Source of the DNA: Squalus acanthias
Lineage: Eukaryota
Direction: 5' to 3'
DNA: 64,000 bases
Assembly: GCA_030390025.1 (NCBI GenBank)
Contig: CM059432.1
Span: forward strand, 35,094,001-35,158,000
The translations under genes and the position numbers were made by a program. Below, piece after piece: positions 19,821-62,280 of this stretch. The notes under the pieces are model-generated. The model saw only the letters and a list, made by a program, of their open reading frames with translations, did not search any database and had not been told where the DNA came from. Numbering within the stretch: the stretch's first letter is position 1; the number at the start of each line of letters is the position of its first letter.

Positions 19821-20939
19821 TGATCTCTCTTTATATCATTTTTTTTAAATGCCGATGAACCCCTCTCCAATACAATGTGGGGGTAATTCTAACCCAAGCC
19901 ATTGAAGTCAGCAGAAAGTCAAATCAGGCAGAGTGTAAAATGGTCAGCCGGTCCAATCCCGTCAGTTTCCCACTGGAGGGAGGGTTGAGTTAAAATTACC
20001 CTCAATGTTTCCACGGACTTAATTAGCACTATGTGAAAAAATAAATCACTCGCACTCAGACCAACATAATAGATCCTCCGCTGTGTGTGTTGAGGCCCCA
20101 CAGTTTCACACAGGTAACTCTTCACAGCACAGAAATACTTCTTGGGAGCCTTCCAAGAGGTACAACTTAGTCTCTATAAATATTTCTATTGCAGCCGCTG
20201 GTAAACAGAGCCTGTGGAGCAAGTGTAGCAGATACACACAAGGGACCTACTGTGCCCAGTATGAGGCCTACTCGCCCATCAGCCCCCTCCCCCGACCTAC
20301 ACCAGCTCCCATCCCCAACGCTTTACATTTCAAATGTTAGTCTTTGTTTTTGAATCTCTCCGCGGCCTCGTTCCATCCTATCTCTGCAATCTCCTCGTGA
20401 GCTAAACCCCGACCCCACCCCCTCTGAACACCCCCTTCCCCTGTTAATGGCCTTTTATTATGTGTCTCCCTCACCCTTCCTTTGCCCAACAATTGACAGC
20501 CATGCCTTCAGCCACTTGGCTTCCCTTCTGCAAAATACCCTCTGCCTCCCCTTTATACACCTCTTGAAAACATTGCTCTTTCGGATGAGATGTTAAACCG
20601 AGGCCCCTCCCCTTCGCTCCGTGGCATCACCGGCTACCGCCGCAGAGAAACCTCCGGTATCGATGATATCACCCACAACCCCACACCCCCGCCCCCTCGC
20701 CATAGAGAGCTGGCACCCGCTTAGGGGTGGCCGTAAACTGGACCAGCTGGTGGAGAAGCAGCCGGCAGTCTGGGGAAGGGGAAGAGAGAGATGTTGGAGA
20801 GGTGCGGGGTTGGGTAGGAAGAGGGTGAACAGGGACTAGGATGTAGGGGATTGGAGCTCGAAGTGGGTGGAAGAGTAGGTGACCGAGAACTGGGGGTATT
20901 GGGGCTCGGGATGGTGGGAGAGAATGACAGCAGACTGGG

Positions 20940-21782
20940 GCCTGGGGGAGACGGAGATAGGAGTGGGGGTTAGGGGCTTGGCGATGGGGATTGCGATAGA
21001 GAGGGGGATTGGGGAATGGGGGAGACGGGGACAGGAGTCGGGGTGTGGGGGTTAGGGGCTTGGGTGATGGGGATTGGGGGAGAGAGGGGGATTGTGGAAT
21101 GGGGGGAGACGGAGACAGGAGTCGGGGTGTGGGGGTTAGGGGCTCGGTGATGGGGATTGGGGGAGAGAGGGGGATTGGGGAATGGGGGGAGACGGGGACA
21201 GGAGTCGGGGTGTGGGGGTTAGGGGCTCGGGCGATGGGGATTGCGGGAGAGAGGGGGATTGGGGAATGGGGGGAGACGGGGACAGGAGTCGGGGTGTGGG
21301 GGTTAGGGGCTCGGGCGATAGGGATTGGGGAGAGAGGGGGATTGGGGAATGGGGAAACGAAGACAGGAGTCGGGGTGTGGGGGTTAGCGGCTCGGGCAAT
21401 GGAGATTGAGGGAGAGAGGGGGATTGGGGAATGAGGGAGACGGAGACAGGAGTCGGGGTGTGGGGGTTAGGGGCTCGGGCGATGGGGATTGGGGGAGAGA
21501 GGGGGATTGGGGAATGGGGGAGACGAAGACAGGAGTCGGGGTGTGGGGGTTAGGGGCTCGGTCGATGGGGATTGGGGGAGAGAGAGGGATTGGGGAATGG
21601 GGAGACGGAGACAGGAGTCGGGGTGTGGGGGTTAGGTGCTCGGGCGATGGGGATTGGGATAGAGAGAGGGATTGGGGAATGGGGAGATGGGGTCAGGAGT
21701 CGGGGAGTGGGGGTTAGGGGCTCGGGTGATGGGGATTGGGGGAGAGAGAGGGATTGGGGAATGGGGAGAGAGGGAGACTAGG
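20940..21782 (+). repeat. G-rich minisatellite, ~83-bp unit, ~10 copies
   Basis: Unit gggggattggggaatgggggagacggggacaggagtcggggtgtgggggttaggggctcgggcgatggggattgggggagaga. Confidence 0.95.
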
Positions 21783-27814: not shown

Positions 27815-28031
27815 AGTGACAATATATTTTAGTTATTAAATAGTAATCTTTACTAAAATGAAAATGTTCCTACTAGCACCTCATGATCGGTGTCAGTTGA
27901 TAGATTAAGTAAGGGGAGTTTAATAAAGTGTTCAAAATGATGAGGGGTTTTGATAGAGTAGTTGGGGAGAAACTGTTGGAAGAGTTTGGTAACCAGAGGA
28001 CATAGATTTAAGTTAATTGGCAAAAGAACCA

Positions 28032-28525
28032 CATGCACACACACACTGGCACACACTTACACATGCACACAGACACACACTCACACAGACGCACACACAC
28101 TCACACACTCACACAGACAGACACACACTCACACAGACGCACACACACTCACACAGACAGACACACACTCACACAGACACAAACTCACACACACTCACAC
28201 ACACTCACACAGACGCACACACACAGACACACACTCACACACACAGACACACACTCACACACACAGACACACTCACACAGACGCACACACACAGACACAC
28301 ACTCACACACACTCACACAGACGCACACACACAGACACACACTCACACACACAGACACACACTCACACACACAGACACACACTCACACAGACGCACACAC
28401 ACAGACACACACTCACACACACTCACACAGACGCACATACACTCACACATGCACACAGACAGACACAGAGACATGGACACACCCACACTCACAAACAGAT
28501 GCACACACACAGACACACACGCACA
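28032..28525 (+). repeat. Compound (CA)n-derived microsatellite
   Basis: CACACAGACA/CACACTCACA runs, which produce the spurious His/Thr ORFs. Confidence 0.95.
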
Positions 28526-29594
28526 TAAAAACAAATAGACACAACAGCAACTGGCATTTATACAGCACCTTTAACTTAGTAAAAACGTCCCAAGGTGCTT
28601 CACAGGAGCATTATTGGACAAAATTTGACACCAAGCCACATAAAGAGATAGGAGAGGTGACCAAAAGCTTGGTCAAAGAGGTAGGTTTTAAGAAGCAACT
28701 TAAAGGAGGAGAGAGAAGTAGAGAGGCGGAGAGGTTTAAAAAGAGAATTCAGAGCTTAGGGCTTAGGCAGCTGAAGGCACGGCCACCAATGGTGGAGCGA
28801 TTAAAATTGGGGATGTGCAAGAGGCCAGAATTGGAGAAGTGCAGAGATCTTGGAGGGTTGTAGGGCTGGAGTCGGTTACAGAGATAGGGGCGAGGCCATG
28901 AAGGGATTTGAACACAGATACAAACACACACACAGAGGCACACACATATGGAACAGAGATGATGGAACCTACCAGTTAGCATTAGGTCTCACTAGAGGTG
29001 AGTTTGGTTGCAGGAGTGGGGTTACAATCTGTGACGCTGTATCTGACCTGCACTTAGGTCTAGCAAGACAGTGCAGTGAAACCGTGTAATGTCTATCCTA
29101 TAGTATATACACAAGTAGATGTTATATATAGTGTATACTCACACACGTATATATGTGTGCATGTATGTAAATATATATACATACAATATAAAGGAAAGTA
29201 TATATATATGTAATGAGAAAGAGAGTCTATGCATATATAGACTGCAGGCAGCAAAGTCTTTCAATTTCTGTCCTATGGGGCATGCACAATAATATATAGT
29301 ATATGATCACACTCATATATGCTAATGTGTGTATATATAGAGAGAGAGAGAGAGATCAGCTGATTTTGGAAATGAGAGCGACCAGCTTGTGAAGTTGTCT
29401 CTAGCTCCAGGTATACATTCATAAAATTGATCCTATAATATATAAATAATCTATAATACACACATGCATATATATAACAGCAGAAGCTAATATAAGAAAT
29501 ATGTGGTATCACCGAGCCGGAATAACCCAATAGAGGAATCTGTACACATGTCATTAAAACACGCTCTCCTCTTTAAATGAACACAGGCACTCAC

Positions 29595-29669
29595 CAGAGC
29601 GTAGACACTGCTGAGGACCGAGCAGTACAGCAATACTCCCAGGCTGCTGGAGACGGTGGCGGCTCCCAT
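29595..29669 (-). CDS. PTH1R: Parathyroid hormone 1 receptor, signal-peptide coding exon (exon S)
   Basis: ATG at 29669, then 25 codons MGAATVSSSLGVLLYCSVLSSVYAL and a phase-0 GTGAGT donor (29594-29589). Matches the PTH1R N-terminus (human [25 protein letters not shown]), whose first coding exon also ends after codon 25. Confidence 0.88.
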
Positions 29670-30930
29670 GTTCGACACCGGACGATGTCAGCCCAGTTCC
29701 TTCCTCATCCACTTTTCAAATTGCTTCTTTCAAACACTTTCCTCTCTTCCTTCACCTTCGGTAGTATCGAATCCACGAGTCCATTCCAACTCGCCCCCCC
29801 CCCCCCCGCCCCCCACCCACCAAAAAACAACTAATTGAAACTCTCGCTAACTTTTCTTCCTTCAGTTGTGGAGAGAGCAGAGTCTGGGGCAGTCACGACT
29901 GATGTTTGATTTTCTGTGCATACTGGTTAGGGAGCAACAACAAAAATCACATCCATATGACAGAACTCAGCTGCTTATTAACCCCCTGCCCTCAATTCAC
30001 TATTTGTCTCCTCCCCTTGGATCTTCCCCAGTGGCAAGAAACGAGTTAAAGTCCTGGGCTGGCGGTTTCTGTGCTGTCAGGTCAGGCGCCTTTCTGTACT
30101 TTCCTTACTCCAGCTCCAGGATTTCGGTGAGGGAAAAAAAAAGCCCACCTCTTGTGTGTGAATATCACCGCGTAAATTTCGTGTCAATTTCAACCCACTT
30201 CTGCCACTTTCACATTCTCCAGTATGCTTATTTTCTCGAAATTGTTCTGCAGATTAAAGTCTTATAAATTGAGAGTTCTATTTAAAAGAAAAGTTTCTTC
30301 AGCTTCATTTAAAGCCTTGAAATAGTTTCAATTATATATATATGCATATATATTTCATTTCAGCATTCCTACTCTCCTTATACACTCCTTCCCAGTCTTC
30401 TTGCCCACCAGCGGTGATGAGCCTGGAAATGATGGGATCGTATAGGATGATGTCCGTATAGCCCAGCTGTCTCTCTCTCTCTCTCTCTCTCTGTCCACTC
30501 TATGTGTGTTGGGCAGGTATCAGAGATGGGGTGAGGAAGTACAAAGGGTAGGCTGCCTACCATTGGCTCAGCCTCCACCCAGCCTGTGATTAAGAGGTGG
30601 GGGAGGAAATATTTTAAAAATGTAATATAATTACTCCCTAGCTAGCTCTGTCCCTCCTCAAACATGCAATGATCTCCAGTCTCTCTCCACGAGATGGTTT
30701 CCTGACTCCTGCTGGAATCTGTTAAGCTATTTTTTTTTCACTTGGCAGTCAATATCTAGTCCCAAAATAAACAGCAGGAATGCAAGACGGTAGCAATTTG
30801 AGCAAGAAATGTTGTGGGAATTATTACAGAATGTTTCAGAATCTTGTATTTTCATTATTATCAGATTACACCGATAATTCCCACCGATAATACTCAGTGT
30901 AATGGATTGAGGGAATTTTTTTATATGGGA
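29670..30930 (-). promoter_or_regulatory. PTH1R 5' UTR / promoter region
   Basis: Unique sequence with no recognisable TE, directly upstream of the PTH1R ATG. Contains a G-tract, CpGs, a candidate TATA-like TTTATAAG (~30268-30261), a candidate donor GTAAGG (30108-30103) and a CCAAT near 30562-30566. Confidence 0.45.
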
Positions 30931-31780
30931 CACTGGGGGGGTAAATGGTAATCATTCATTCCTGTCTCGTACTGTACGGCTTGTGAGTGTCTCAGTGTCA
31001 GCTCCAGTACAGGTACAGTACACAGCGGGTAAAAGGGAACGATTCACTCCCGTCTGGTACTGTACCGCTCGTGTGTGTCTCAGTGTCAGCTCCTGTATAT
31101 GGACAGTACACACTGCGCCATTCTGACCTGGTACTGTACCGATCATGTGCGAGATGAATTTCCCACTGCAAAGTCTCAGTCGCCAGGAGTCAGACTGAAG
31201 AATCAGGTCTTGGTGTTGTTGTCCACAGTTCCCTATCTGGAGCCCATTCCAGTGTTAATCACTGTCTCTGTGAGGTGCTCCCTGACACTGGGCTGTATTT
31301 CCCTTTTACCAGTTTGCACCCACATCCCTTTTTCTCCTGCAGTCGAAGTTCAACTCGACATAGTGCTTCATATTAAGCTTTTCTATTGCATTTAGTATCT
31401 TATCTCTCTATAACGTCACCTCTCATCTGCCGCCTTTCAAGGCTGAAGAGTCCAAGCTTTTCTAACATTTCCTCATGACCCAGTCCGCTGAAACTAGGGC
31501 TCAGCATCACGTTCCTTTCCAGCTCCGTTTCCATAGCTTTGAGAAACCAGAGCTGAACTCAGTATGAAGGTGTGGCCCCACCAAGCTATGAATTGGTACA
31601 CGATAGCAGTACAAAGTGACTCTCCCTCCCATCTTTACCTCCCTGTCTGCTGGGAAGCAACTGGTGTCTACTCTGTGCTTCCTATTAACGCAGTCTAGGC
31701 CCTACCACTCTGAGACAGTCTGAAGCTTTTGCTTCGTGGATTTGGAGTATAAGAAACTGCCCATCTATCTCTCTAGTATT

Positions 31781-38747: not shown

Positions 38748-41700
38748 ATAAGAACATAAGAAATAGGAGCAGGAGTAGGCCATTCGGCACTTCAAGCCTG
38801 CTCTGCCATTCAATGAGATCATGGCTGATCTTCTGCGTCAACTCCATTCACCGGCCCTATCGCCATATCCCTTGATGCCCTTACTAGTCAGAAATCTATC
38901 GACTTCTGTTTTGAATATACCCAATGACTGAGCCACCACAGCCCTCTGGGGTAGAGAATTCCAAAGATTCACCACCCTCTGTGTGAAGAAATTTCTTCTC
39001 ATCTCAGTCCTGAATGGCCTACCCTTTATCTTGAGGCTGTGGCCCCTGGTTCTAGACTCCCCAGCCAAGGGAAACATTCTCCCAGCATCCATCCTATCAA
39101 GCCCTGTAATAATTTTGTATGCTTCAATGAGATCGCCTCTCATTCTTCTGAATTCAAGAGAATACAGGCCTAGTTTACTCAATCTCTTCTCATACGACAG
39201 TCCCGCCATCCCAGGAATCAATCTCGTGAACCTTCGTTGCACTCCCTCTATAGCAAGTATATCCTTCCTTAGGCAAGGAGACCAAAATTGTACACAGTTC
39301 TCCAGGTGTGGTCTCACCAAGGCCCTATATAATTGGAGTAAAACTTCTTTACTCCTGTACTCAAATCCTCTTGTAATGAAGGCCAGCATACCATTTGCCT
39401 TCCTAATGGCTTGCTGCACCTGCACATTCACTTTCAGTGACTCATATACAAGGACACCTTTGAGCATCTGCATTCCCCAATCTTTCACCATTTAGGAAAT
39501 ACTCTGCCTTTCTGTTTTTTCTACCAAAGTGGATAACTTCACATTTATCCACATTATATTCCATCTGCCATGTTCTCGCCCACTCACTGAGCCTGTCGAG
39601 ATCCCCTTGAAGCCTCATCACATCCTCTTCACAACTGACACTGCCACCTAGCTTTGTATCATCAGCAAATTTGGAAATGTTACATTTAGTCCCCTCATCC
39701 AAATCATTGATATAGATTGTGAATAGCTGGGGCCCAAGCACCGATCCTTGCGGTACCCCACTAGTCACAGCCTGCCATCCTGAAAAAGACCCGTTTATCC
39801 CTACTCTTTGTTTTCTGTCTGTTAGCCAATTCTCAATCCATGCTAGTATATTACCCCCAATTCCATGTGCCCTAACTTTATTTACCAACCTCTTGTGTGG
39901 GACCTTATCGAAGGCCTTCTGAAAATCCAAATACACCACATCTACCGGTTCCCCTTTGTCTACTCCACTAGTTACATCCTCAAAGAACTCCAATAGGTTT
40001 GTTAAACAGGATTTCCCTTTCATAAATCCATGTTGACTCTGCCCAATCTTACTATTAGTTTCTAAGTGCCCAGTTATTGCATCCTTTATAATAGATTCCA
40101 GCATTTTACCAACTACTGATGTGAGGCTAACAGGTCTGTAGTTCCCCGTTTTCTCTCTCCCTCCTTTCTTAAATAGCGGGGTTACATTTGCTATCCTCCA
40201 ATCTGCAGGAACCGTTTCAGAATCTATAGAATTTTGGAAGATGACAATCAACGCATCCACTATCCCAATGGCCACCTCTTTCAAAACCCTAGGATGCAGG
40301 TCATCCGGTCCTTGAGATTTATCGACTTTTAGTCCCATTAATTTTGCTAGTACAGTTTTTTTACTAATAATTTCTTTAAGTTCCTTATTCTCACCACACC
40401 CTTGGTTTTCTCATATTTCTGGGAGGTTTTTTGTGTCTTCCTCCGTGAAGACAGAAACAAAGTATTTATTTAATTTCTCTGCCATTTCCTCATTCCCCAT
40501 TATAAATTCTCCCATCTCTGACTGTAAAGAACCTACATTTACCTTCGCCAGTCTTTTCCTTTTCACATACCTATAGAAGCTTTTACAATCTGTTTTTATA
40601 TTTTTCGCTAGTTTATGCTCATATTCCATTTTCCCTTTCTTTATCAATTTCTTGGTCCCCCTTTGCTGATTTCTAAAAAGATCCCAATCCTCAGGCTGAC
40701 CGCATTTTCTGGCAACTTTATAAGCTTCCTCCTTTGACTTAATACTAGCTTTAATTTCTTTTGTTAGCCATGGTTGGATCACTTTTCCTTTTGGGTTTTT
40801 ATGCCCTAGAGGAATATATGTTTGTTGCAAATTATGCATTATTTCCTTGAATGTTAGCCATTGTATGTCCACCTTCATACCTTTTAGTGTAGTCTCCCAA
40901 TCTACCTTGGCCAACTTGTCCCTCATACCCTTGTAGCCTCTTAACCTCTGTTTAGATTGAAGACCTTAGTTTCAGATTGGACTACATCACTCTCAAACTT
41001 AATGTAAAATTCAATCATATTATGGTCACTTGTCCCTAAAGGCCCCTTTACCACAAGATTATTGATTAGCCCTTTCTCATTACACAGTACCAGATCCAGA
41101 ATTGCCTGTTCCCTGGTTGGTTCCTCCACATACTGATCCAGGAAACCATCTCGCATGCATTCCAAGAATTTGTCCTCCACGCCATTAGTGGTAATTTGAT
41201 TTGCCCAGTCAATATGTAGATTAAAGTCCCCCATGATTACCGTATTGCCCTTGTTACATGCACTTCTAATTTCTTGATTGATAGTGTGCCCTACACTACC
41301 ACTACTGTTTGGTGGCCTATACACAACTCCCACCAATGTTTTCCGCCCTTTGCTGTTTCTTAGCTCCACCCAAACTGATTCCAGTTCTACATCACGATCT
41401 GCCGAGCCAAGATCTTTTATCTCTACCGTACCGATCTCATCCCTTATTAACAGCGCTACACCACCTCCTTTTCTTTTTTGTCGGTCTTTCCTAAATGTTG
41501 AGTACCCTGGAACATTCAGTTCCCAGCTTTGGTTACCCTGCAACCATGTCTCTGTAATGGCAATTACATCATACCCATTTACTTCTATTTGTGCCATTAA
41601 TTCATCCACCTTGTTGCAAATGCTATGTGCATTTAGAGAAAGTGCCTTCAACTTTGCCTGTTTAATATTTTTCAGCACTTTGATCCTCTTTACTGTTGGC

Positions 41701-42960
41701 CTTTGTTTCTGCTCCCTACTAGTTTTGCTGACTACTTTTCTAACTTGCACTTCCAGCTTTGTTTCTCTCCATTCTGGGCCCACACTTAGGTTCCCAGCCC
41801 CCTGACAAACTAGTTTAAATCCTTCCCAACAGCACTAGCAAACCCCCCTGCGAAGGTATTGGTCCCAGTTCTGCTGAGGTGTAACCCGTCCAGCTTGTAC
41901 AGGTCCCACCTTCCCCAGAATCGGTCCCAATGCCTCAGGAATTTAAATCCCTCCCTCCTACACCATCTCTCCAGCCACGCATTCATCTGGTCTATTCTCC
42001 TATTTCTGCTCTCGCTAGCATGTGGCACTGGGAGTAATCCTGAGATTACTACCTTTAAGGTCCTGCTTTTTAATTTATTTCCTAGCTCCCTATATTCTGC
42101 TTGCAGGACCTCGTCCCTCTTTCTACCTATGTCGTTGGTACTGATATGGACCATGACCTCTGGCTGTTCACCCTCCCCCTTTAGAATGTCCTGCAGCCGC
42201 TCAGTGACATCCTTGACCTGGCACCAAAGAGGCAATATACCATCCTGGAGTCACGTCTGCGGCCACAGAAACGTCTATCCCTTACAATAGAATCCCCTAT
42301 CACTATTGCTCTCCCACTCTTTTTCCTCCCCTCCTGTGCAGCTGAGCCACTCATAGTGCCACGGACTTGGCTCTTGCTGCATTCCCCTGAGAAACCATCT
42401 CCCCCAGCAGTATCCAAAACGGAAAATCTGTTGGAGAGGGAGATGGACCCAGGGGACTCCTGCACTACCTTCCTAGTTCTTTTATTCTGTCTGGCGGTCA
42501 CCCATTCCCTTTCTGCCTGTGCACTCTTTACCTGCGGTGTGACCACCTCGTCAAATGTGCTCTCCATGTAGATCTCAGCCTCGCGGATGCTCCACAGTAA
42601 CTCCAGCCACAGCTCCAGATCCGAAATGCGGATTTCGAGTAGCTGCAGCTGGAGTCACTTCCTGCACATGTGTTCGCCCTGGACACCGAAAGTGTCCCTG
42701 ACTTCCCACATAGCACAGGAGGAGCACTCCACGCTGCCGAGCTGCCCTGCCATGTCCTACCCTTAATTTACTCCCTTTACTTCCTCTAAACTAAAGAATA
42801 TTAAATACACTAGGGACCTTACTTCACTTTACACACTACTTACTCTAAACTAGAGACCTTACTTTTACTTTAACGACTGGACTGTAGAAATACTCACCAG
42901 GTCCTACTTACCAATCAGCTCCTTCCCTGGTTGTGACTTGTATAAATGTTTGCCCCGACC
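38748..42960 (-). mobile_element. Near full-length CR1 LINE (ORF1 zinc finger and SGNH esterase; ORF2 APE endonuclease and RT), frameshifted
   Basis: ORF1 pieces 42753-41810 (CxxC finger, VHISTNDI esterase). ORF2 pieces 41783-40941 (ITETW, GDFN, SDH), 40926-40411, 40338-39442 (GVPQGSVLGP, FADD) and 39491-38838. 3' tail (TTCTTATG)n. Confidence 0.95.
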
Positions 42961-47987: not shown

Positions 47988-50157
47988 GTACATAAGAACA
48001 TAAGAACATAAGAAATAGGAGCAGGAGTAGGCCAATCGGCCCCTCGAGCCTGCTCCGCCATTCAATAAGATCATGGCTGATCTGATCCTAACCGCCAATC
48101 TACTATCTATCACAGAACCATCTCCTGCATCTAACAGAATTGCACACACGAAGTAGGAGCAGAATCAGGCTACACGGTCCCTGGGCCCGCTCCACTACCC
48201 ACAGGGCCATGACCGATCCGAACCTAGACTCATGTCCAAATTCCTGCCCGCTCCCCGTAACCCTTAATGCCCTTTACTTCTAGGAAACTGTCTATTTCTG
48301 TTTTAAATTTATTTAATGATGTAGCTTCTACAGCTTTTTGTGGCAGCATATTCCATGGACCTACCACCCTCTGAGTGAAGTAGTTCCTCCTCATCTCAGT
48401 TTTGAAAGAGCAGCCCCTTATTCTAAGACTATGTCCCCTAGTTCTAGTCTCACCCGTCATCGGGAACATCCTTCCCGCATCCACCCGATCCAACCCCTTC
48501 ACAATCTTATATGTTTCAATAAGATCGCCTCTCATTCTTCTGAACTCCAATGAGTAGAGTCCCAATCTACCCAACCTCTCCTCATATGACCACCCCCTCA
48601 TCCCCGGGATTAACCGAGTGAACCTTTTTTGCACTGCCTCGAGAGCAAGGATGTCTTTCCTTAAGTAAGGACACCAAAACTGTATGCAGTATTCCAGGTG
48701 CGGTCTCACCAATACCTTGTACAACTGAAGCAATACCTCCCTATTTTTATATTCTATCCCCCTAGCAATGAAAGCCAACATTCCATTTGCCTTCTTAATC
48801 ACTTGCTGCACCTGCATACTAACCTTTTGAGTTTCGTGCACCAGGACCCCCAGATCCCTTTGCACTTCAGTACTCTCCAGTTTCTTGCCATTAAGATAAT
48901 AAATTGCTCTAGGATTTTTCCTGCCAAAGTGCATCACCTCACACTTTCCAGTGTTGTATTCCATCTGCCAAATCTCTGCCCACTTACTTAGCCTGTCTAT
49001 GTCCCCTTGCAGGTTTTTTATGTCCTCCTCACTCACTACTTTCCCTCCCATCTTTGTATCATCTGCAAATTTTGATATGTTACACTTGGTCCCTTCCTCC
49101 AAATCGTTAATATAGATTGTAAAGAGTTGGGGACCCAGCACTGACCCCTGTGGAACACCACTAGTTACTGATTGCCAGTCTGAGAATGAACCATTTATCC
49201 CAACTCTTTGCTTTCTGTTAGATAGCCAATCCTCTATCCATGCCAGAATATTACCCCCAATCCCGTGATTTTTTACCTTAAGCAATAATCTTTTGTGTGG
49301 CACCTTGTCAAATGCCTTTTGGAAGTCTAAATACACTACGTCCACTGGTTCCCCTTTATCCACTCTATATGTTACTTCCTCAAAGAACTCCAGCAAATTT
49401 GTCAAACATGACTTCCCCTTCGTAAAACCATGCTGACTTTGTCCTATTAAATTATGATTATCCAAATGTCCTGTTACTGTTTCCTTAATAATGGACTCCA
49501 AAATTTTACCTACCACAGATGTTAGGCTAACCGGTCTATAGTTACCAGCCTTCTGTCTACTGCCCTTTTTAAATAAGGGTGTTACATTAGCAGTTTTCCA
49601 GTCTGCCGGGACCTTAGCGGAATCCAGGGAGTTTTGAAAAATTATTACCAATGCATCTACAATCCCTACCGCCACTTCCTTCAAGACTCTAGGATGTAAG
49701 CCATCAGGTCCAGGTGATTTATCCGCCTTGAGTCCCATTATTTTACCGAGTACCACTTCCTTAGTGATTTTGATCGTGTTTAGCTCCTCTCCCCCTATAG
49801 CCCCCTGTTTGTCCAGTGTTGGGATATTCTTAGTGTCCTCTACTGTAAAGACTGATACAAAATATTCATTCAGTGTTTTTGCCATCTCCATATTTCCCAC
49901 CATTAATTTCCCGGTCTCATCCTCTAAGGGACCAACATTTACTTTAGCCACCCTTTTTCTCTTTATATAACTATAAAAACTCTTACTATCTGTTTTTATA
50001 TTTTTTGCTAATTTACTTTCATAATCTATCTTCCCTTTCTTAATCAATCTTTTTGTTATTTTTTGCTGCCTTTTAAAGTTTTCCCAATCCTCTGTCCTCC
50101 CACTAGATTTCGCTACCTTATATGCCCTTGTTTTTAGTCGAATACTATCCTTAATTA
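47988..50157 (-). mobile_element. 5'-truncated CR1 LINE with uninterrupted RT ORF
   Basis: ORF 48230-50227 (665 aa) with NYRPVSLTS, YLDFQKAFDKV, GVPQGSVLGP and FADD; (TTCTTATG)n tail at ~47990-48012. Confidence 0.95.
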
Positions 50158-50669
50158 CAACTCTACAAAAACCCTCATCCAAGAGGCCATTCTCTATGTG
50201 TGAGCCTGGATAGTGGGTGGGGTCCAAATATTTTTTTAATTTGTTTATGGGATGTGGGCGTCGCTCTCAAGGCCAGCATTTATTGCCCATCCCTAATTGC
50301 CCTTGAGATTTGACCATGATAGGCATCCTAGATGAACCGCATCCTGTCCTCAACCAGAGTTTCCATACATCCACTCATTGCAAAGCGATCAGGATCATGA
50401 CCCCTCACTGGTTTCTTCCTTCCTCACCCCTGAACTCAATCATACCAACCCACCCTGAATTTAATAACTTACAAATTGATTTCTTTGCCTTTCTACAATG
50501 TTACACATGCACTAAATAAAGGAGAGTTAGTGTGAGATAGGAGACCGTGTCCACAGCACCACCTCTGGAGGTACAATCAACTCTTCAAACACAGTGCTTA
50601 TAGGAAGCACGCAATCTGGTTGTATTTTAATTGTTTATATACAATAACAGATATTCAAAATGAGTTACA

Positions 50670-51984: not shown

Positions 51985-52032
51985 AAACAGACATAGAATC
52001 AGACGGAGGTTTAGTATTGATTATAATTTATT
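51985..52032 (-). terminator. Probable polyadenylation site of the cathelin-like gene
   Basis: Minus-strand AATAAA at 52032-52027, followed about 25-50 nt later by GT/T-rich tctatgtctgttttatgtt. A second AATAAA lies at 52304-52299. Confidence 0.5.
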
Positions 52033-52396
52033 GTAACAGGATCAGATGATTCAGACAGTGCGACTCACTCTTTAAATGGAATCCAGTTTACCGGCTGCCT
52101 TATGATACCACTTAGAGGAATAGCTGTAATTGGTTGGGCTGCTCAGCTCCACTTACTATTGGTCTGGAGAAATGATTGGCAGACGGTCTGAAGAAAAGGG
52201 GGCGAGGCCCGATGTCAAGGATTGAATACAATGCAGATTGCAAATTTTACCCTCAAATGTCTCATTTTAAACAGTTTCTGGAGAGTCCAAAGCCAATTTT
52301 TATTTTAAACGTGTGACTTCCGACAAAAGATGGCTGCCTTGGCAGTTCGTTCTGCCCACTATGCTGCTGGCCAATGTCCTCTTCGAAACTCCTCAC

Positions 52397-52405
52397 TCAA
52401 TTTTG
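52397..52405 (-). CDS. Cathelicidin/cathelin-like gene, probable terminal exon 4 coding part (Q-N-stop)
   Basis: Strong acceptor gtgttttgcttttgccttttcag at the start of the first unique (non-TE) block downstream of exon 3. Frame 0 reads CAA AAT TGA, followed by a 3'UTR-like stretch with AATAAA signals. Confidence 0.55.
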   Translation of the reverse strand, partial: QN

Positions 52406-52474
52406 CTGAAAAGGCAAAAGCAAAACACACGGATTGAACGCAGCGCTCGCAAATCTCGACCGTCCTTTTCCCTC

Positions 52475-53612
52475 ATAGGAATATTAGGAACAGGAGTGGG
52501 CTATTCAGCCCCTCGATCCTGCTCTGCCATTCAATTAGATCACTGCTGATCTGTACCTCAACTCCATTTACCCGCCTTTGCTCCATATCTCTTGATACCC
52601 TTACCCAACAAAAATATATCGATCTCTGTCTTGAAAGCTTTAATTGCCCCAACATCCACAGCCTTTTGGGGGAGAGAGTTCCAGATTTCCACTACCCTTT
52701 GTGTGAAAAAGTGCTTCCTGATTTCACCCTTAAATGGCCTAGCTCGAATTTTAAGATTATGTCTCCTGTTTCTGACTTCCCCCACCAGAGGAAATAGTTT
52801 CTGTCTAACTACCCTACCCTATCAAATCATTTTAACATTTTAAGCATCTCGATCAGCCCTCAACCTGCAAGCGACACCCACATCCCATGCACCTGCTGTC
52901 CTTTGTCGTTCTAGCCACCGACTCCATCCCTCTCAGCAAGTAATTAGGAAGGCTAATGGAATGTTGGCCTTTATTGCAAGGGGTATGGAGTATAAAAGCA
53001 GGGAAGTTTTCATGCAACTTTACAGGGCGCTGGTGAGACCGCACCTGGAGTACTGCGTACAGTTTTGGTCTCCATATATAAATAAGGATATACTTGCATT
53101 GGAGGCAGTGCAGAGAAGGTTCACTATGTTGATTCCTGGGATGAAGGGGTTGACGTATGACGAAAGGTTGAGCAGGTTGGGCCTATACTCATTGGAGTTT
53201 AGAAGAATGAGAGGTGATCTTATTGAAACATATAAGATTCTGAGGGGGCTTGACAGGGTAGATGCTGAGAGGAGGTTTTCCCCTCATGGGGGAATCTAGA
53301 ACTAGGGGGCATAGTTTCAGAATAAGGGGTCGCCCATTTAAGACGGAGATGAGGAGGGATTTCTTCTCTCAGAGGGTCGTGAATCTTTGGAATTCTTTAC
53401 CCCAGAGAGCTGTGGAGGCTGGGTCATTGAATATATCCAAGGCAGAGATTGACAGACATTTGAACTACAAGGGAGTCAAGGGTTATGGGGAGAGAGCGGG
53501 AAAGTGGTGTTGAGGCCAAGATTGGATCAGCCATGATCTTATTGAATGGCGGAGCAGGCTCGAGGGTCCGATTGGCCTACTCCTGCTCCTGTTTCTTATG
53601 TTCTTATGTTCT
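52475..53612. mobile_element. Divergent pair of CR1 3' fragments (52475-52860 minus, 52935-53612 plus) in cathelin intron 3
   Basis: ORFs 52558-52785(-), 52961-53299(+) and 53262-53513(+) with CR1 C-terminal motifs and tails. Confidence 0.9.
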
Positions 53613-54390
53613 ATCCCTAGCATCTGTCTGAGGCTGAACCACACTGTTCGCAACCTTGGTGTCTTATTTGACCTTGAAATGAGCTTCCGACCACATATCC
53701 GTGCCATCACTAAGACCGCCTATTTCCACCTCCGGAACATCGCCCATCTCTGCCCCTGCCTCAGCTCATCTGCTGCTGAAACCCTCATCCATGCCTTTGT
53801 TACCTCTTAACTTGACTATTCCAATGCACTCCTGGCTGGCCTCCCACATTCCACCCTACGTAAACTTGAGGTCACCCAAAATTCGGCTGCCCCATGTCCT
53901 AACTCGCATCAAGTCCCGTTCACCCATCACCCCTGTGCTCGCTAACCTACATTGGCTCCCGGTTAAGCAACACCACGATTTTAAAATTCTCATCCTTGTT
54001 TTCAAATCCCTCCATGGCCTCGCCCCTTCCTATCTCTGTAATCTCCTCCAGCCCCACCACCCCTCTGAGATATCTGCGCTCCTCTAATTCTGCCCTCTTG
54101 AGCATCCCTGATTATAATCACTCAACCATCGGTGGCTGTGCCTTCAGCTGCCTCGGCCCTAAGCTCTGGAATTCCCTCCCTAAATCTCTCCGCCTCTCTA
54201 CCTCTCTTTACTCCTTTAAGACGCTCCTTAAAACCTACCTCTTTGACCAAGCTTTTGGTCAGCTGCCCTAATTTCTCCTTATGTGGCTCAGGTGTCAAAT
54301 TTTTTGTCTTATAATACTCTTGTGAAGCGCCTGGGGACGTTTTACTACGTTAAAGGCGCTATATAAATACAAGTTGTTGTTGTTGTTGTA
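53613..54390 (+). mobile_element. L2 LINE 3' fragment
   Basis: VRNLGVLFD..AYFHLRNIA..LIHAFVTS and ITPVLANLHWLPV; (TTG)n tail. Confidence 0.9.
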
Positions 54391-54946
54391 GGTGGTGGCG
54401 GTCATGGGGTTGGGAGATGCTGCCAAAGAAGCCTTGATGACTTGCTGCAGTGCATCCTGTAGATAGTGCACGCTGCAGCCACAGTGCGCTAGTGGTGGAG
54501 GGAGTGGATGTTTAAGCTGGTGGATAAAGTGCAAGTCAAGCGGTCTGCTTTGTCCTGGATGCTGTTGAACCTCGTGAGCGTTGTTGCAACTGCACCCATC
54601 CAGGCAAGTGGAGAGTATTCCATCACACTTCTGACTTGTGCCTTGTAGGTGGAAAGGCTTTGGGGAGTCAGGAGGTGAGCCACTTGCGAAAGAATACCCA
54701 GCCTCTGACCTGCTCTAGTAGCCACGGCATTTATGTGGCTGGTCCAGTTGAGTTTCTGGTCAATGGTGACCCCCAGGATGTTGGTAGGGATTTGGCGATG
54801 GTAATGCCACTGATTATCAAGCGGAGGTAGTTAGGCTGTCTCTTGTTGGAGATGGTCATTGCCTGACAGTAATTATATCTGGTCTGTCCATTCACTGTCC
54901 CTCTTTGTGAAGTAGTCACCAAAAAGGAAAGAAGGAGATTGCTTAC

Positions 54947-55027
54947 CTGTGTGCAGGTGACTACAGTTCTGATTGGTAGAGGGATGTTGAATCTAATTGT
55001 AATGACCGCGTTGCAGGTCAAGATGGT
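54947..55027 (-). CDS. Cathelicidin/cathelin-like gene, exon 3
   Basis: Acceptor attttcccaacag, 81 bp TILTCNAVITIRFNIPLPIRTVVTCTQ, donor CAG|GTAAGC. Supplies Cys3 and Cys4 of the cathelin domain; phase 0/0. Confidence 0.85.
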
Positions 55028-56108
55028 CTGTTGGGAAAATGGAACAATCATTGGAACAAATGGTCATGTTCAGAATTTTTAGAAGATATTCACAGTTCGA
55101 AGCTTATTGCACTTCATAACCTAGGTTCGGATCGAGAAGCCCCTTCAGCCTATTTGACCTCTTTCCAGAAGACCAACCCCACGGTCTCCTCATTACATCA
55201 TCCAGCCTCGTTTTAAATAAGTCCAGTGTCCTGGCCTCAACCACCCTTTCTAGTGGTGAATTCTGGTGAATCTGTGCTGCACTCCCTCCAAGACCAATAT
55301 ATTCTTTCTGAGGTGTGACAAGAGGTCTTCAATTTATAATTGCCACTAAAAGAGTGAGAAAAAAGGTTAAAACATTTTTTTTTACACAAAGCCTGGAATG
55401 CTTTGTCCCAGGGAATGCCTGAGGCAGACACCATTGCATCTTTTAAGGGTAAATTGGATAAATATTTGAAGTGAATGAAGATTTAGGGCTATGAGGAGAG
55501 AGTGGGGCAGCGGGATTAGATTTGGTTTGCTCTAAAAAAGAGCTAGCACAGGCCTAATGGCCCGAATGGCCTCCTTCAGAGCTGCAAACTTCTAGGTTAA
55601 AAAAAAAGGTCTAGAATAAGTTGCATGGGAAGGACATTGATACAGACAGTAGAAATGGGTTCAAGAGGTAACTATGAACCAGGACAGGGACCTCCTGGCT
55701 TAGGGGGTCCCCTGCTTTGTTCCACCTCCCGTCCGCCATTTGCCTTGTTAAGAGCAGACAAAAGTTTCCCAATTTCCCTTCCCCCTCCCCTTACAAGGCA
55801 ACGAGGAAAATCCATTGTACAGTGGATACTTGGTGCAACCTGGTTTGGGATGGTTCTGTCACGTTCCCACTGGACTTACGGTGGGAGGTGACGGGACCCA
55901 TGAGGTATCTCAGGGTCGATAACATTCACCACTGCAGCACAACGGATAGACGACTCCCAGGGATGGAAGCTAGGCTCAGGCTCAGCTCTCCACGCCAACT
56001 GGCATCCTTTGATAAAAGGGAGCACCCGTGAATCACAGTTAATTCCACTGGGTCACCTTGCTCGACAGGCCCCCAACACACTCAGAAAGAGGACACCGGC
56101 ATACTCAC

Positions 56109-56216
56109 CCCATTATCCATGAATTCACACTCTTGCATTACATCCTCCATTCCCTTAGTGCACACTGTCTGCTTGAGGGCAAACCCAATCTCGTATTCTT
56201 TTCCTTGTGACATTTC
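56109..56216 (-). CDS. Cathelicidin/cathelin-like gene, exon 2
   Basis: Acceptor tctcctttctgcag, 108 bp EMSQGKEYEIGFALKQTVCTKGMEDVMQECEFMDNG, donor GTGAGT. Motif F-x-L-K-Q-T-x-C-x10-C-x-F-x3-G matches cathelin FTVKETVC-x10-CDFKKDG; size and phase 0/0 match CAMP exon 2. Confidence 0.88.
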
Positions 56217-56409
56217 CTGCAGAAAGGAGAGGTGATTAAGCCTTTATACACTTCCAGCAGTACATTCTAGGGAACCAGGCCTGTTGACATTCACAGATGT
56301 TTGCTTCTTTTTCGTCAGTGAATTTGTCTTCTCACAAGCTGAGGGATTTTACCCCTGAGAAACAGAATGCATTTCACACATCTACATACCAGTGTCATCA
56401 ACAAGGACT

Positions 56410-57206
56410 CCCATATCAGGTACAGCACGGGTTAGATACAGAGGAAAGCTCCATTTAAATAGTCCCATCAAACACTCCCTGGGCAGGCACAGCACCGTTT
56501 AAAGACGGAGTAAAGTTCCCTATATACTATCCATCAAACACACCCAGGGCAGGCACAGCAGGGGTTAGATACAGAGTAAAGCTCCCTCTACACTGCCCCA
56601 TCAAACACTCCCAAGTAAAGTGCAGCATGGATTGGATACAGAGGAAAGCTCCATCTACACTGTCCTATCAAACACACCCTAGGTAGGCACAACACAGGTT
56701 AGATACAGAGTGAAGCTCCCTCTACACTGTCCCATCAAACACACCCTGGGTAGGCACAACACAGGCTAGATACAGAGTGAAGCTCCCTCTACAGTGTCCC
56801 ATCAGACACACCCAGGGCAGGTACAGCACGGGTTAGATACAGAGTGAAGCTCCCTCTACACTGTCCCATCAAACACACCCTGGGTAGGCACAACACAGGC
56901 TAGATACAGAGTGAAGCTCCCTCTACGCTGTCCCATCAAACACACCCAGGGTAGGCACAACACAGGTTAGATACAGAGTGAAGCTCCCTCTACAGTGTCC
57001 CATCAGACACACCCAGGGCGGGTACAGCACGGGTTAGATACAGAGTGAAGTTCCCTCTACAGTGTCCCATCAGACACACCCAGGGCAGGTACAGCACGGG
57101 TTAGATACAGAGTGAAGCTCCCTCTACACTGTCCCATCAGACACACCCAGGGCAGGTACAGCACGGGTTAGATACAGAATGAAGCTCCCTCTACACTGTC
57201 CCATCG
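56410..57206 (+). repeat. Minisatellite, ~67-bp unit, ~12 copies
   Basis: Unit ggttagatacagagtgaagctccctctacactgtcccatcaaacacacccagggcaggtacagcacg. The same unit occurs at 8430-8595. Confidence 0.95.
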
Positions 57207-60200
57207 AGCATAGTTCAGTGACAGCCTCTTTGGGAAGGCGTAGTCTCCACATACAGGTTTTCTCCAGATGCCAATGTCTGGGCCTGTTGGCAGTTTAAGG
57301 AGGTGTTCTCATTGTTGTCCTTCTGTGATCCTCCTCCTCCAGTACCTGCAATTTAGAAGGAAAGAACTTGCATTTACACAGCGAAATGTAACATCCTCAA
57401 GATATCCAACCAATGACCTTCTTTTGAAGTGCAGTCACTGCTGTTATGTAGTTAAACGTGGCATCCAACTTATGCACAGCATGATCCCACAAACGGCAAA
57501 TGAAACGAAGGGCCAGTTAATCTGTTTTTCAGTGGTGTTGATTGAGGGAGGAGTGTTGATCAGGACACCAAGAAAACTCACCTGCTTCTCTTGGAACGGT
57601 GCCACGGGATCTTTTACATTTACCTGAACAGGCAAATGGGCCTCAGTTTAACATCTCATCATAAAGGACAGCACCTCCGACAGTGCAGTAGTCCCTCAGT
57701 ACTGTTCGGTTGGGAAACAATCTCAGATAACAGACAGGGTGCAGCTTTAAGAAGCTGTAAGTAAGGCTTTAATAAATCTCATTGACTTCCTTTCTCCCAC
57801 AACAGCAAGGAGAGGTGAGTGTAAGCTGCCCTCGCCATCAAGGCAGCAGTCAACCGAGAATGGCATTAATGATCCGAGCAAAACTGAGGTCACTGCTACT
57901 CAAAAGGGAAAACTCTCCAGTGGAGTCATACATGACACAAACGAAGATGCTTCTGGTTGTCAGAGGCCAATCACCTCAGCCGCAGGACATCGCTGCAGGA
58001 GTTCCTCAGGAAAGCATCTTCGACCCAGCCATATTCAGGTGCTTCATCAATGACCTTCCCTCCGTCACAAAGTCAGGAGCAGGACTGCTCACATGATTCC
58101 TTAGTGTTCAGCTTCACTTAGAACTCTCTGATAATGAAGCAGCCTGTGCCAGCCCACAGCAGGACCTGAACAACAGCCAGGCTAGAGCTGGCAAAGTGGC
58201 AGGTAACATTCGCGCCACATAAGTGCCATTGTGGGAGCACCATCGCCACAAGGACTGCAGTGGTCGAAGGAGAAGGCCTTAAACCACCTTCTCTGGGCAC
58301 CGAGTCAATAAATGCATCCTTGCCAACGTGGCCCACATCCCAAGAACAAAGGTGAAAAAACACAGATGCAGTGAATACAAACAGCTGCACAGAAATCTGA
58401 AAAACTGCAATACACCTTTAACAGCAAGGACCCAACTGAAGAAATGGGTGTCCATGCAGTGCCTATTTTCTGTAGAGTGCTCATTATGGGAGCGTCCTTA
58501 ATTTACATAAAAATGAGTGCCTTAATAAGCCTAGCTCACAAGTACGGAAGAACGTCAAAGCCTAACGCACACATTCACTGGGACTAAGTTACTTGAGGGC
58601 TGTTGCTAGTATCATGGCGGCTCAATCTTTAGCGATGCTTTGCCAGGCGAGCTGCCTCTTACTTTCAGTAGAAATGAGGCCCAAGGCCTAATAGGAATTG
58701 TAGCCTGCACCCAAAAATGGACGCGCCTGAATTTCTAGGCCAGAGAGTTGTGAGGTTGCGAAATTTTTCCAGGGTTAGTGGTTGAGGCAGAAACTATGTC
58801 AACATTCAAATTAGATTGGATATGTGGTGAAGGACAAGGGGCTAAAGGAATATGGGAACAGGGCGGGTAAATGTAATTGGAACTATCTGGTTACGTGGAG
58901 GGTAAATGTCAACATGGACTGGTTGGGCCGAATGGCCTGTTTCCATGTTGTAACTCCTATGTATTTCTATGTATGTCTTTTCAGTTGAGATATGATTTGC
59001 CCTGTGCTTTGGCCACTCCGAGGGCCTTAGGCCTCAGTGCCCCCTGCTGTAAGATGCCGGCACCTGATGCGCAAAAGCAAAGATCAAAGTATTGGCACCA
59101 GTACTTCACGGTTGAGGTGGCACAATCTGCCCACCAGCAAGATCAGTAGGCACTAAACTATATTTGATGCCTGCCAATGCCGAGGACAGCTGCCTCGCAG
59201 TCAACAGCGAGCCAGTTGCAGATCTTTGTCATTTTCAGCAAGGAGACCTGCACCTCCAGCCAACATTACCAGTGGTCGGCAAGGATGCCACTGCCATCCA
59301 GTGCTAACTTGCTCATTGCCAGTTAGCACTGCAGTATTAGTTAAGGTTCTGCACACATGTACTGTATCAACCATACCAGAATGTAGGTTGTTTCTATTTG
59401 TTCTTGGAATGTGGACGAAACTGCCAAGCTACTATTTATTACTCATCCCTAGTTGCCCCAAGGGCATTGAGAGTCAACAACATAACGTGGAACTGGAGTC
59501 GCAATGTAAGCCAGACCAGGTATGGGTGGCAGATTCCCTTCTCTGAAGGACATTAGTGAACCAGTTTAGTTTTTACAACAATCCAGCAGCTTCATGGTCA
59601 TTCTTCTGGTACCAGCCCAAAAGGTAACCAGATTTATTGAATTCACTTTCATAATTTACCACAGTGGGATTATGAACTCACAACCTTTGGGTTGCTAGTC
59701 CAGTGCTATAACCACTAAGCTACTTTGATCCACTTTCCTCACCTATCCCACTGAATGGGTTGATTCAGCTCACCAGTGACGCTACACTGCTACATTTCAA
59801 GGGGTCAGTGCAGGCTGCCATGTCGCCAAGCTGAAGAGCATCCTGGGGGGCAGTAAGTGACCGTGTTTGTGTTACAATAGTTTGATGTGTGAAATCCCTG
59901 GAAGATGCGACTGTGCCAAGGGTTTCAATTGTAAATTGCACCTGAAATGTGTGCCCTACTGAAGTTATTGGCATGCATGAGATCCAAAGTTCTGTGAGGT
60001 TATGTGAGAGCTTGACCTGGGTGCCAGCATTAAATACTGAACCAGTTGACGGTCAACACTTTGTGGCATGTGATCTTGGGCCATCTACTTGGGACCTTGC
60101 CAGGTTCCGTAAAGTGTTCTCCCTCAACTGTTCCCGGGTCCTGCAGGTACGTGTTGAGTCTGGTCACCACCTCCTGCTGCGTATGGCGCACGGCGGTCTT

Positions 60201-61859
60201 GCAGGCAGAGTACCCTGATGTGCCAAACAGGGTAAAACCGCCTCTCACCCATCCCATGCAGCAGTATATCCACTCCGCTAACCATCAAGCAGAGGGTCGC
60301 AGGGGGTGGGGGGAATGTGGCGTTCCACCACAATCTTTGTCTGATGTCTCATCATTGGGTTTACCATCCCTTCGCTTTTTTTCATTTGTGGGTGAGTCCA
60401 GAACAAGGAGCCATAAATATAAAACAGTCACTAACAGATCAAATCATTTAGAAAGGATTTCTTTACACAGAGCGTGGTGAGAATGTGGAACTCGTTGCCA
60501 CGTGAAGTGGTTGAAGTAGATAGCAGACTATTAGACCTTGGAGGGTATTATAACCAAGTTTGATCCTGCACTTGCCCGGCTTGATACATACATGAGAAGA
60601 GAAGGGAATAGAGGGATATGGGGGCAGCGTGGGAAGAGGGAATTAGAGTGGGAGCATAAACATCGGCATAGACCTGTTGGGCTGAATGGCCTGTTTCTGT
60701 GCTGTATATTCTATGTAATGTTGTCCTACTCTTTTAAACCTTGATCGTGTCCAGTGCCCTTGTCCTCGGCCCTGAATCTGGATTTATCAATAATAAAAAT
60801 AATCTAAGTTATAAACTGGGCTTCATCACTGGTACAATGGCTAACAACAAATTTGCAAGCATTGGAGACAATTCAACTGAAAAATAGCAACTGTCAAAAA
60901 TAGATATATATGTGTATATAGAATCTCCTCCATTGTCACAGTGAGTTACACCGACAGGAGGGTCCCGGCTCCTGTCCACAGCCAGTTCTGAGCTACACTC
61001 ATCCCGGGGTGAGAGGAGGGTGGTGCTGAGTGGGAGGGGATTAAGAACACTACAATTGTCCTTATCTCACCGGGGCTAGGGAGGGGGGAATTAAAATCAG
61101 CTGGGTGAATGCTCCTGCTCACTATCCAATAACTACCATTGGAAAGTGTGTATGGATAATGCCAGGCAAGTACAGGATCAGACTTGGTTATAATGTCTTC
61201 CAAGGTCGAATAGCCTGCCAAACAGGCACCCCGACACAGCTCACCGGATAGAGGCCTCAAGATCGCGCCTGGGCTGCTACCAGCAAGGTAAGTTGTTGGT
61301 GGTGGGGGGGGGGCGCGGTTTACGATCATGGAGGGTGGGGGTCTCGGGGCAGCAGCGTCCTAGATTATTTTTGTGAGTCCCAGAGGAGCACCCCTGCTCC
61401 TCCGGGGCCCACAGAAAGAATTCAACACTTACCTTTGGCAGGCCTCTTCAGTTCCCTCGGACGCAGAACTGGTCGGACTGAGCACGGTGCAGGCTCCGAC
61501 CAGTTCCAACCTAAAATGACAATTGGGGACCTATTTATGTCATGGACCCCGATTTCCATATTAAAACGGGCCTGTCGCCTGAAACAGGTGGGCTCTTTGG
61601 ACACCCGGCGAAAATGCTACCGACCCCATTTTGAGGCTGTTACTGTCCCTTTAATGCCAGGCAAAGGCAGTGAAAGTCGACCCCATTGCTTTTTTCTTGC
61701 TTCTCTTGCCTCTGGCTGGGTGCAGGAGGAAGCCTTACCCTGCGCCTCCCCCACTCACCCACCTCCTCCTCCCAATTCTGAGGCAATAAAAACAAGCCAT
61801 ACGCAGGCCCGCTGTGAATCCACTTTCGCAATTCCAGCAGTTCAATGACGTCTTTATAC

Positions 61860-62039
61860 CTTGATTGCGATGCAGTGGGCTCCCATGAGTTTAAAGAGGT
61901 TCAGCCGGCCGGACCCCGCGTTGTACTTGTAAATGGCGGCATACAGAGCGTCCTTGGACGTCGGTGTCCGTTGAACCGGGCCTCCGTGCCCCACCGCAAC
62001 CGCTCCGAAGCACACAAGGGCGGTCAACCAGGATCTCAT
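61860..62039 (-). CDS. Cathelicidin/cathelin-like gene, exon 1 (signal peptide and first cathelin helix)
   Basis: 180 bp: MRSWLTALVCFGAVAVGHGGPVQRTPTSKDALYAAIYKYNAGSGRLNLFKLMGAHCIAIK, then donor AAG|GTATAA. Hydrophobic leader; DALYAAIYKYN..NLFKL resembles cathelin EAVLRAIDGIN..NLYRL. Confidence 0.8.
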
Positions 62040-62099
62040 CCCGTCAGAGGTCTCCTGTGCAAAACTCCAGTCAAAACTGCTGCGACACACCAGCAGAAG

Positions 62100-62280
62100 C
62101 CTGTCTACCCCTAAGTTAGCTATTGGTCGCTGAGGTTAATTATTATCGCTGGCCTTGAATATCTCTGATGGTGAGGATGACCGGCTTTGTTTTTTTTGGA
62201 TAGATACTGTGCTTCAGTCGTGCGTGGCTGTCAACCAAAACAAACACTTACTGGCATCTGCCCTAACAAACACAGCTTTC
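62100..62280 (-). promoter_or_regulatory. Putative proximal promoter of the cathelin-like gene (CCAAT, HNF1-like, two FOXA-like sites)
   Basis: CCAAT at 62126-62122. GTTAATTATTATC at 62135-62147 has one mismatch to the HNF1 consensus GTTAATNATTAAC. TGTTTGT motifs near 62240-62246 and 62266-62272. Confidence 0.45.

Follow-up and report, generated by a model that had tools for sequence, protein, structure and literature searches.

A spliced four-exon, cathelin-like gene without an antimicrobial peptide near a PTH1R-like exon in the shark Squalus acanthias

The window studied here is a stretch of 64,000 nucleotides from the shark Squalus acanthias (GenBank assembly GCA_030390025.1, contig CM059432.1, positions 35,094,001 to 35,158,000 of the forward strand), in which an original prediction, made from the letters alone, had placed a hidden four-exon gene of the cathelicidin family upstream of PTH1R. 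The window carries a four-exon gene on its minus strand, whose product appears cathelin-like by sequence and ends four residues behind the cathelin domain, and one exon of a PTH1R-like gene. The features are, in positions of the window:

62039-61860, minus strand: coding exon 1, 180 bp and 60 residues, phase 0 with a GT donor; predicted signal peptide, helix, strand beta2 and the invariant extra cysteine Cys56
56216-56109, minus strand: exon 2, 108 bp and 36 residues; hairpin L1 (E-M-S-Q-G), beta3, C79 and C90
55027-54947, minus strand: exon 3, 81 bp and 27 residues; beta4-beta5, C101 and C121, and loop L2 without Trp
52405-52397, minus strand: coding part of exon 4, CAA AAT TGA (Gln-Asn-stop)
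52396-50899, minus strand: 3' untranslated region (UTR) of exon 4; single RNA-type contigs reach about 50899
29669-29595, minus strand: PTH1R-like signal-peptide exon (25 residues), on the same strand as the cathelin-like gene

All introns of the cathelin-like gene are GT-AG and of phase 0, and the joined exons encode 125 residues with cysteines at 10, 56, 79, 90, 101 and 121; the exon positions and the sizes of 180, 108 and 81 bp are those originally proposed. Splicing was followed in contigs from four public runs of two studies, the RNA nature of which was only guessed by software. Among the joints listed, besides which there are 498 weaker ones, all three expected junctions are present: that of exons 2 and 3 (56109/55027) in contigs of all four runs, that of exons 1 and 2 (61860/56216) in three of the four, and that of exons 3 and 4 (54947/52405) also in three, while in the fourth run the loose ends match and contain the stop codon. 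The joints of all three introns read CT..AC on the plus strand. Given that they skip the GT-AG introns exactly, which is the pattern of spliced RNA, the four-exon gene is real and spliced. The window is 43% self-repeated and rich in frames resembling long interspersed nuclear elements (LINE), and the exons lie outside the repeated part. The exon set is not a product of chance, given its 63-94% identity to 16 full-length orthologues.

A cathelicidin is defined by a cathelin domain followed by a cationic peptide from exon 4 (PMC9604716, PMC12006171; here and below, papers are cited for the portions of their text that were available). The gene in the window has the four-exon layout, with exons 1-3 encoding the signal peptide and a cathelin domain with the four conserved cysteines. 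What it does not encode is the cationic antimicrobial peptide of about 20-50 residues that exon 4 contributes and proteolysis releases, given that its exon 4 is almost entirely 3' UTR and its coding part reads Gln-Asn-stop, from which no antimicrobial peptide can be released. Since the defining feature of a cathelicidin precursor is absent, the gene is no peptide precursor, a point that the original prediction had missed. The same ending is found in all 16 orthologues tested, which stop 1-4 residues past the last cysteine; one Hemitrygon isoform, in which exons 3-4 are replaced by other sequence and two cysteines are lost, was excluded from this count. For comparison, many other cathelicidin matches carry tails of 30-70 residues with a net charge of +5 to +15. 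No other cationic exon 4 was found among the 33 acceptor-like sites from exon 3 to position 31000, bar one frame of 64 residues that lies inside a repeat-derived stretch.

The contigs and the sequence around the exons hold further features of the transcript. Run X1 joins exons 2-4 at a depth of 900-2100 and leaves exon 1 uncovered, a gap that alone proves nothing, and the exon-2 contig extends into intron 1 (56109-56443). A TATAAA lies about 30 bases ahead of exon 2 (56248-56243, minus strand), the second codon of which is ATG; an internal start would possibly give a short form without signal peptide, although contigs cannot reveal starts. Contig depth over the distal UTR is about 500 in X2 and X3, 40 in X1 and about 12 in X5. 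Several AATAAA/ATTAAA signals occur in 52405-50899 (minus strand), with AATAAA within the 3' UTR at 52304, 52032 and 51335, and the 3' end of exon 4 seems to exist in a short and a long form. In several orthologues, two RefSeq isoforms are distinguished by a single Gln where exon 4 begins (P0013/P0014, P0006/P0016, P0020/P0027), as from a tandem acceptor; the window carries CAG CAA at the 52405 acceptor, so that a single form is expected.

With exon 1 alone as query, nine proteins among 37 candidates were retrieved, each from a shark or a ray and each automatically named cathelicidin-like, and cluster look-ups together with the profile search gave orthologues from 18 shark and ray species, which carry the automatic name 'cathelicidin-related peptide-like' in RefSeq/UniRef. 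The gene is not hidden, given this annotation in 18 elasmobranch species and a 2009 survey in which cathelicidin is tabulated as present in Chondrichthyes (PMC2784779); the available text of a fish-immunity review (PMC6795676) holds no mention of a shark cathelicidin. As anticipated, the orthologous exons are conserved: the orthologues are 122-128 residues long, the 16 full-length ones are 63-94% identical to the window protein, and those of Heptranchias and Pristiophorus reach 94%, which suggests a shark related to these two. Of 121 positions, 46 are invariant in 19 sequences, among them C79, C90, C101 and C121 and a fifth cysteine, Cys56, which the original prediction did not mention. The proteins named 'cathelicidin-related peptide Oh-Cath-like' (XP_067831302.1 of Heptranchias, XP_038664819.1 of Scyliorhinus canicula and XP_020370999.1 of Rhincodon) are orthologues with the same cysteine pattern and stop as the window gene, from which they differ in nothing essential, and their name implies a peptide that none of them carries. 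Searches with exon 1 and with the profile found no holocephalan orthologue, which is weak evidence, with names obtained for 20 of the 124 new profile matches. A chondrichthyan cathelicidin-like gene was therefore already known, while its tail-less form, fifth cysteine and cystatin-type loops were not found described in the literature searched, in which subscription journals were mostly missing.

A second elasmobranch cathelin-like family (P0072/P0155, P0087, P0117, P0153), named variously cathelicidin-like, SPP24-like or uncharacterized, evolves faster and has tails of 23-33 residues, which are neutral (net -1 to +1) in all four. Its shark-ray domain identity is 35%, compared with 68% for the orthologues of the window gene, although its members may not be strict orthologues of each other. 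In Pristis, Cetorhinus and two Chiloscyllium species this family and the orthologues are found on contigs of matching size, and it is likely that both lie on the same chromosome. No second cathelin-like gene was found in the window by tblastn of the fetched proteins.

The profile searches place the protein nearest to the cathelicidins. Pfam Cathelicidins (PF00666) matches nine of nine members, with an E-value of 1.2e-9 for the first, above the cut-off, while Pfam Cystatin scores lower (7e-6) and Spp-24 matches only two of the nine (best E 0.024), so that the order is Cathelicidins first, then Cystatin, with Spp-24 marginal. Exon 2 alone reaches Pfam Cathelicidins with an E-value of 0.0025, under the cut-off. 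The best sequence matches in the PDB are the human and pig cathelin domains (E about 1e-5), followed by cystatin F. A profile search of 1.84 billion representatives gave 126 matches, and each of the 91 scanned among the 124 new ones had Cystatin or Cathelicidins as its best family.

For the maximum-likelihood tree, the 226 domains that passed the coverage filter were reduced to 97, selected by group, and removal of 18 near-duplicates or partial domains left 79 rows, aligned over 97 columns, with outgroups chosen among the matches of the shark profile itself. The shark genes form one clade (99/98) that joins all cathelicidin-like rows (97/90), separate from 28 cystatin and kininogen domains, and that branches outside a group (93/86) formed by the cathelicidins of ray-finned fish and tetrapods. 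The window gene can be considered cathelin-like from its Pfam matches and its position in the tree, and an SPP2 identity is disfavoured, SPP2 being absent from the tree. The grouping with cathelicidins that had been proposed appears in this tree, although a union with two type-2 cystatins is not rejected (see below). As a whole, the original reading is partly supported: it stands for a real four-exon shark gene with a sequence of the cathelin branch, for the PTH1R neighbour and for a cystatin-like beta2-beta3 hairpin.

The cysteine spacing, on which the original prediction had also relied, was tried as proof of cathelicidin identity and rejected. The window protein has x10-x10-x19, where x15-16 is usual for the last gap in other cathelicidin rows. 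This spacing is not diagnostic, given that it recurs in a shark 'cystatin-like' protein and in other cystatin domains and that lizard cathelicidins span x16-19 (PMC12278569).

The structure was modelled for the Heptranchias orthologue (94% identical) with an alignment of 63 rows (predicted local distance difference test score, pLDDT, of 84.9). The model adopts a cystatin fold, in which beta2 (47-62) is unbroken and leads through a turn of two residues into beta3 (65-80), so that the cystatin-like strand noticed in the original prediction belongs to a hairpin that is intact in the model. Foldseek ranks the human cathelin domain first with cystatin E/M close behind, and VIA-align, in which Z differences under 1 are ties, gives 14.3 for cystatin E/M (root-mean-square deviation 1.8, 97 aligned), 13.7 for cystatin C, 13.1 for chemerin, 12.8 for the protegrin-3 cathelin and 12.5 for the human cathelin. 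The predicted fold would therefore be at least as near to type-2 cystatins as to cathelins. Disulfides C79-C90 and C101-C121 are predicted by homology. Among structural look-alikes in the ESM Atlas, the teleost zgc:194981 cluster, of cystatin type, comes first at 0.88, followed by cathelicidin clusters, all below 0.9 and to be taken as a lead only; no paper on teleost zgc:194981 was found.

Type-2 cystatins carry the motifs QxVxG in loop 1 and PW in loop 2, both seen in a shark cystatin row, and their genes have a three-exon layout. The protein of the window lacks this pair. Loop 1 reads E-M-S-Q-G where cystatins have QxVxG; across 19 sequences, position 61 is Gln in nine and Glu, Ala or Leu in ten, and the Val of the motif is replaced by Pro, Ser, Thr or Ala in every one. 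Loop 2 reads N-I-P-L-P, and all 19 lack its Trp. It appears from sequence and model that a cathelin-like core has kept the hairpin and second loop at cystatin lengths.

Compared with classical cathelicidins (human CAMP, pig protegrin, those of reptiles and ray-finned fish; PF00666), the gene shares the four exons, the signal peptide, the cathelin core motifs, the four cysteines, the clade in the tree and the PTH1R-linked region, and differs in having no exon-4 peptide or cleavage site, a C3-C4 gap of x19 where x15-16 predominates, an intact cystatin-like hairpin and the extra invariant Cys56. With type-2 cystatins (C, E/M, F; PF00031) it shares the fold (Z 13-14), the hairpin Gly and the x19 spacing, but its sequence scores against them are lower, they lie outside the 97/90 cathelin clade and their two motifs are worn here. 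The neutrophilic granule protein (NGP), Komodo Cathelicidin2 and lacertid CATH1 are likewise cathelin domains of the cathelicidin region without a cationic peptide, although they keep a neutral or acidic tail and the window protein has none (PMC12006171, PMC6716921, PMC12278569).

A family of amphibians and reptiles (XP_030052871.1 of Microcaecilia, XP_053568909.1 of Bombina, XP_060639459 of Anolis, K7GI21 of Pelodiscus) resembles the window protein in its x10-x10-x19 spacing (the first gap is x11 in one), in a gap-free alignment through the hairpin and in also branching outside the main cathelicidin clade. Unlike the window protein, it has tails of 40-52 residues and no Cys56, with 24-33% identity in the three best. 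In the tree, the amphibian and reptile cathelicidin-like clade (P0055, P0069, P0070, P0075, P0115) has a support of 100/99, with x19 and a cystatin-length hairpin, and is a candidate for the tetrapod counterpart of the shark gene.

By analogy with NGP, there is about an even chance that this tail-less protein of the cathelin branch functions as an intact whole, in binding or immune modulation, after its predicted secretion. Cleavage of a signal peptide of about 19 residues, judged by eye, near Gly19 would give a mature chain of about 106 residues, with a net charge of +2 here and of -1 to +5 across the 16 orthologues. It would have two disulfides and one free, invariant cysteine, Cys56, through which it would likely be joined to another copy of itself or to a partner, and the intact domain would then serve in innate defence or in its regulation, as NGP is thought to. 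The slow evolution suggests a conserved host partner rather than microbial membranes, and the worn QxVxG and PW motifs make tight inhibition of papain-family proteases less likely. Precedents are NGP, which is uncleaved and not antimicrobial (PMC12006171), and Komodo Cathelicidin2, for which no active peptide is predicted (PMC6716921).

Several observations weigh against a cathelin-branch protein acting in this way. The approximately unbiased (AU) test does not reject the union of the shark genes with two type-2 cystatins (p 0.112), and the tree is built on 97 columns and without named SPP2, chemerin, fetuin, NGP or hagfish rows. The model lies slightly nearer to cystatins E/M and C (14.3, 13.7) than to the cathelins (12.5-12.8). 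The invariance of Gly65 and Pro114, which belong to the two cystatin loops, agrees with a protease-binding edge that has been kept. The analogy with NGP is itself loose, given that NGP keeps an acidic C-terminal tail.

A different role, somewhat unlikely but the closest competitor to the NGP-like reading, is that of an inhibitor or modulator of cysteine proteases, in which a cathelin-branch protein with a kept cystatin wedge would regulate extracellular cathepsins. The continuous beta2, tight turn and beta3 of the model, its best structural Z-values to cystatins E/M and C, the alignment of the hairpin with the QxVxG loops of cystatin F and a shark cystatin, the invariant Gly65, the Gln61 of nine sequences and the V-P at 111-112 in most sequences all fit this role, and pig cathelin was initially characterised as an inhibitor of cathepsin L (PMC10968335). 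Against it stand the other residues at position 61 in ten of 19 sequences, the motif Val and the loop-2 Trp that are absent from all, an N-terminal trunk that would be short after signal cleavage, and the statement that cathelicidins have lost inhibitory activity (PMC2784779). It is less probable still that the intact domain is itself antimicrobial or opsonic, binding lipopolysaccharide or microbes in place of the missing peptide: the locus and the probable ancestry are those of cathelicidins, and in one run the junction contigs reach a depth of 25,169, where intron contigs have about 5-20. An abundant product would give such a contrast, although depth in contigs measures abundance poorly. Nonetheless, the mature charge given above is low for this role and the slow evolution is unlike that of an arms-race effector.

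A protein like SPP2, or another non-immune protein of cystatin fold acting in mineralisation or growth-factor binding, is very unlikely. The spp2 genes are expanded in cartilaginous fish, with one copy off the main locus (PMC13188829), SPP2 is not in the tree, and a paralogous elasmobranch protein is automatically named 'secreted phosphoprotein 24-like'. Against this, the Spp-24 profile barely scores and is the best family for none of the 91 scanned profile matches, there is no tail for phosphoserines, the spp2 locus is that of sh3bp4/arl4c/nme9/vps8 and not of PTH1R, and the accession of the catshark orthologue is absent from eight supplements of the same paper (PMC13188829). The least credible alternative, to the point of being nearly negligible, is a normal cathelicidin precursor with a peptide exon that is unannotated or reached by read-through of the stop. 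Behind the stop, 44 codons stay open (52396-52262, minus strand), starting with V-R-S, which resembles the VRR/VTR motif ahead of reptile peptides (PMC6716921), and the 498 weaker joints leave room for a hidden exon. However, such a run of open codons is expected by chance about once in eight, the frame has a net charge of only about +2 by hand count, the UTR has no Rfam match such as a selenocysteine insertion sequence (SECIS), and the stop is present in the loose ends of spliced contigs and at the same position in 16 orthologues. The 44-codon frame may be due to chance or may be a relic tail.

As to origin, it is possible, though far from favoured, that sharks and rays keep a 'proto-cathelicidin', that is, a free cathelin domain with the hairpin and loop length of a cystatin that sits at the cathelicidin locus and never bore a peptide. 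Given that the second family has only neutral tails (in four of four), elasmobranchs may be without any peptide-bearing cathelicidin. Hagfish do have peptide-bearing cathelicidins (PMC10968335, PMC9604716), which makes the loss of a tail in elasmobranchs as likely as a proto-cathelicidin, and the evolutionary history of the family has been called unknown (PMC12006171). Were the proto-cathelicidin real, it would be a natural test object for the own role of the cathelin domain and for its origin from a protease inhibitor. Cathelin is usually regarded as a mere carrier of the peptide behind it, and a tail-less cathelin kept under strong constraint across sharks and rays argues for a function of the domain itself, for the finding of which this small protein should be easily expressed. 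The result also corrects the names in databases, which point to an antimicrobial peptide where none is encoded.

The cathelicidin region marked by PTH1R and KLHL18 is represented in the window by the PTH1R-like exon, which lies beyond the 3' UTR of the cathelin-like gene, about 21 kb from its end. The neighbour named in the original prediction is borne out by the match of this signal exon to a PTH/PTHrP receptor-like protein of Heptranchias, its only match (E 2e-4; 26/28 and E 1e-8 by tblastn); a PDB sequence search with the exon gave no match, and motif scans found no later PTH1R exons in the window. In Heptranchias, the orthologue of the cathelin-like gene and the receptor-like protein sit on contigs of equal size (142,684,034). 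In human, CAMP and PTH1R are both located at 3p21.31. PTH1R also flanks the monotreme cathelicidin cluster C (PMC12006171). The unique stretch at 28917-30938 around the exon, with GA and G runs, is likely the promoter and 5' UTR of the PTH1R-like gene.

The sole Rfam find in the window is a weak tRNA-like match in intron 1 (59657-59729, minus strand, 31.8 bits), probably the head of a short interspersed nuclear element. Long, little-decayed frames occur at 48230-50266 and 39442-42654 (minus strand), which we take to be LINE reverse transcriptase/endonuclease (678 residues), and at 10809-11879 (minus strand), presumably a Penelope-type endonuclease end (356 residues). At about 20700-21750 there is a minisatellite of the 40-60-base type, and at about 28000-28550 a stretch rich in CA.

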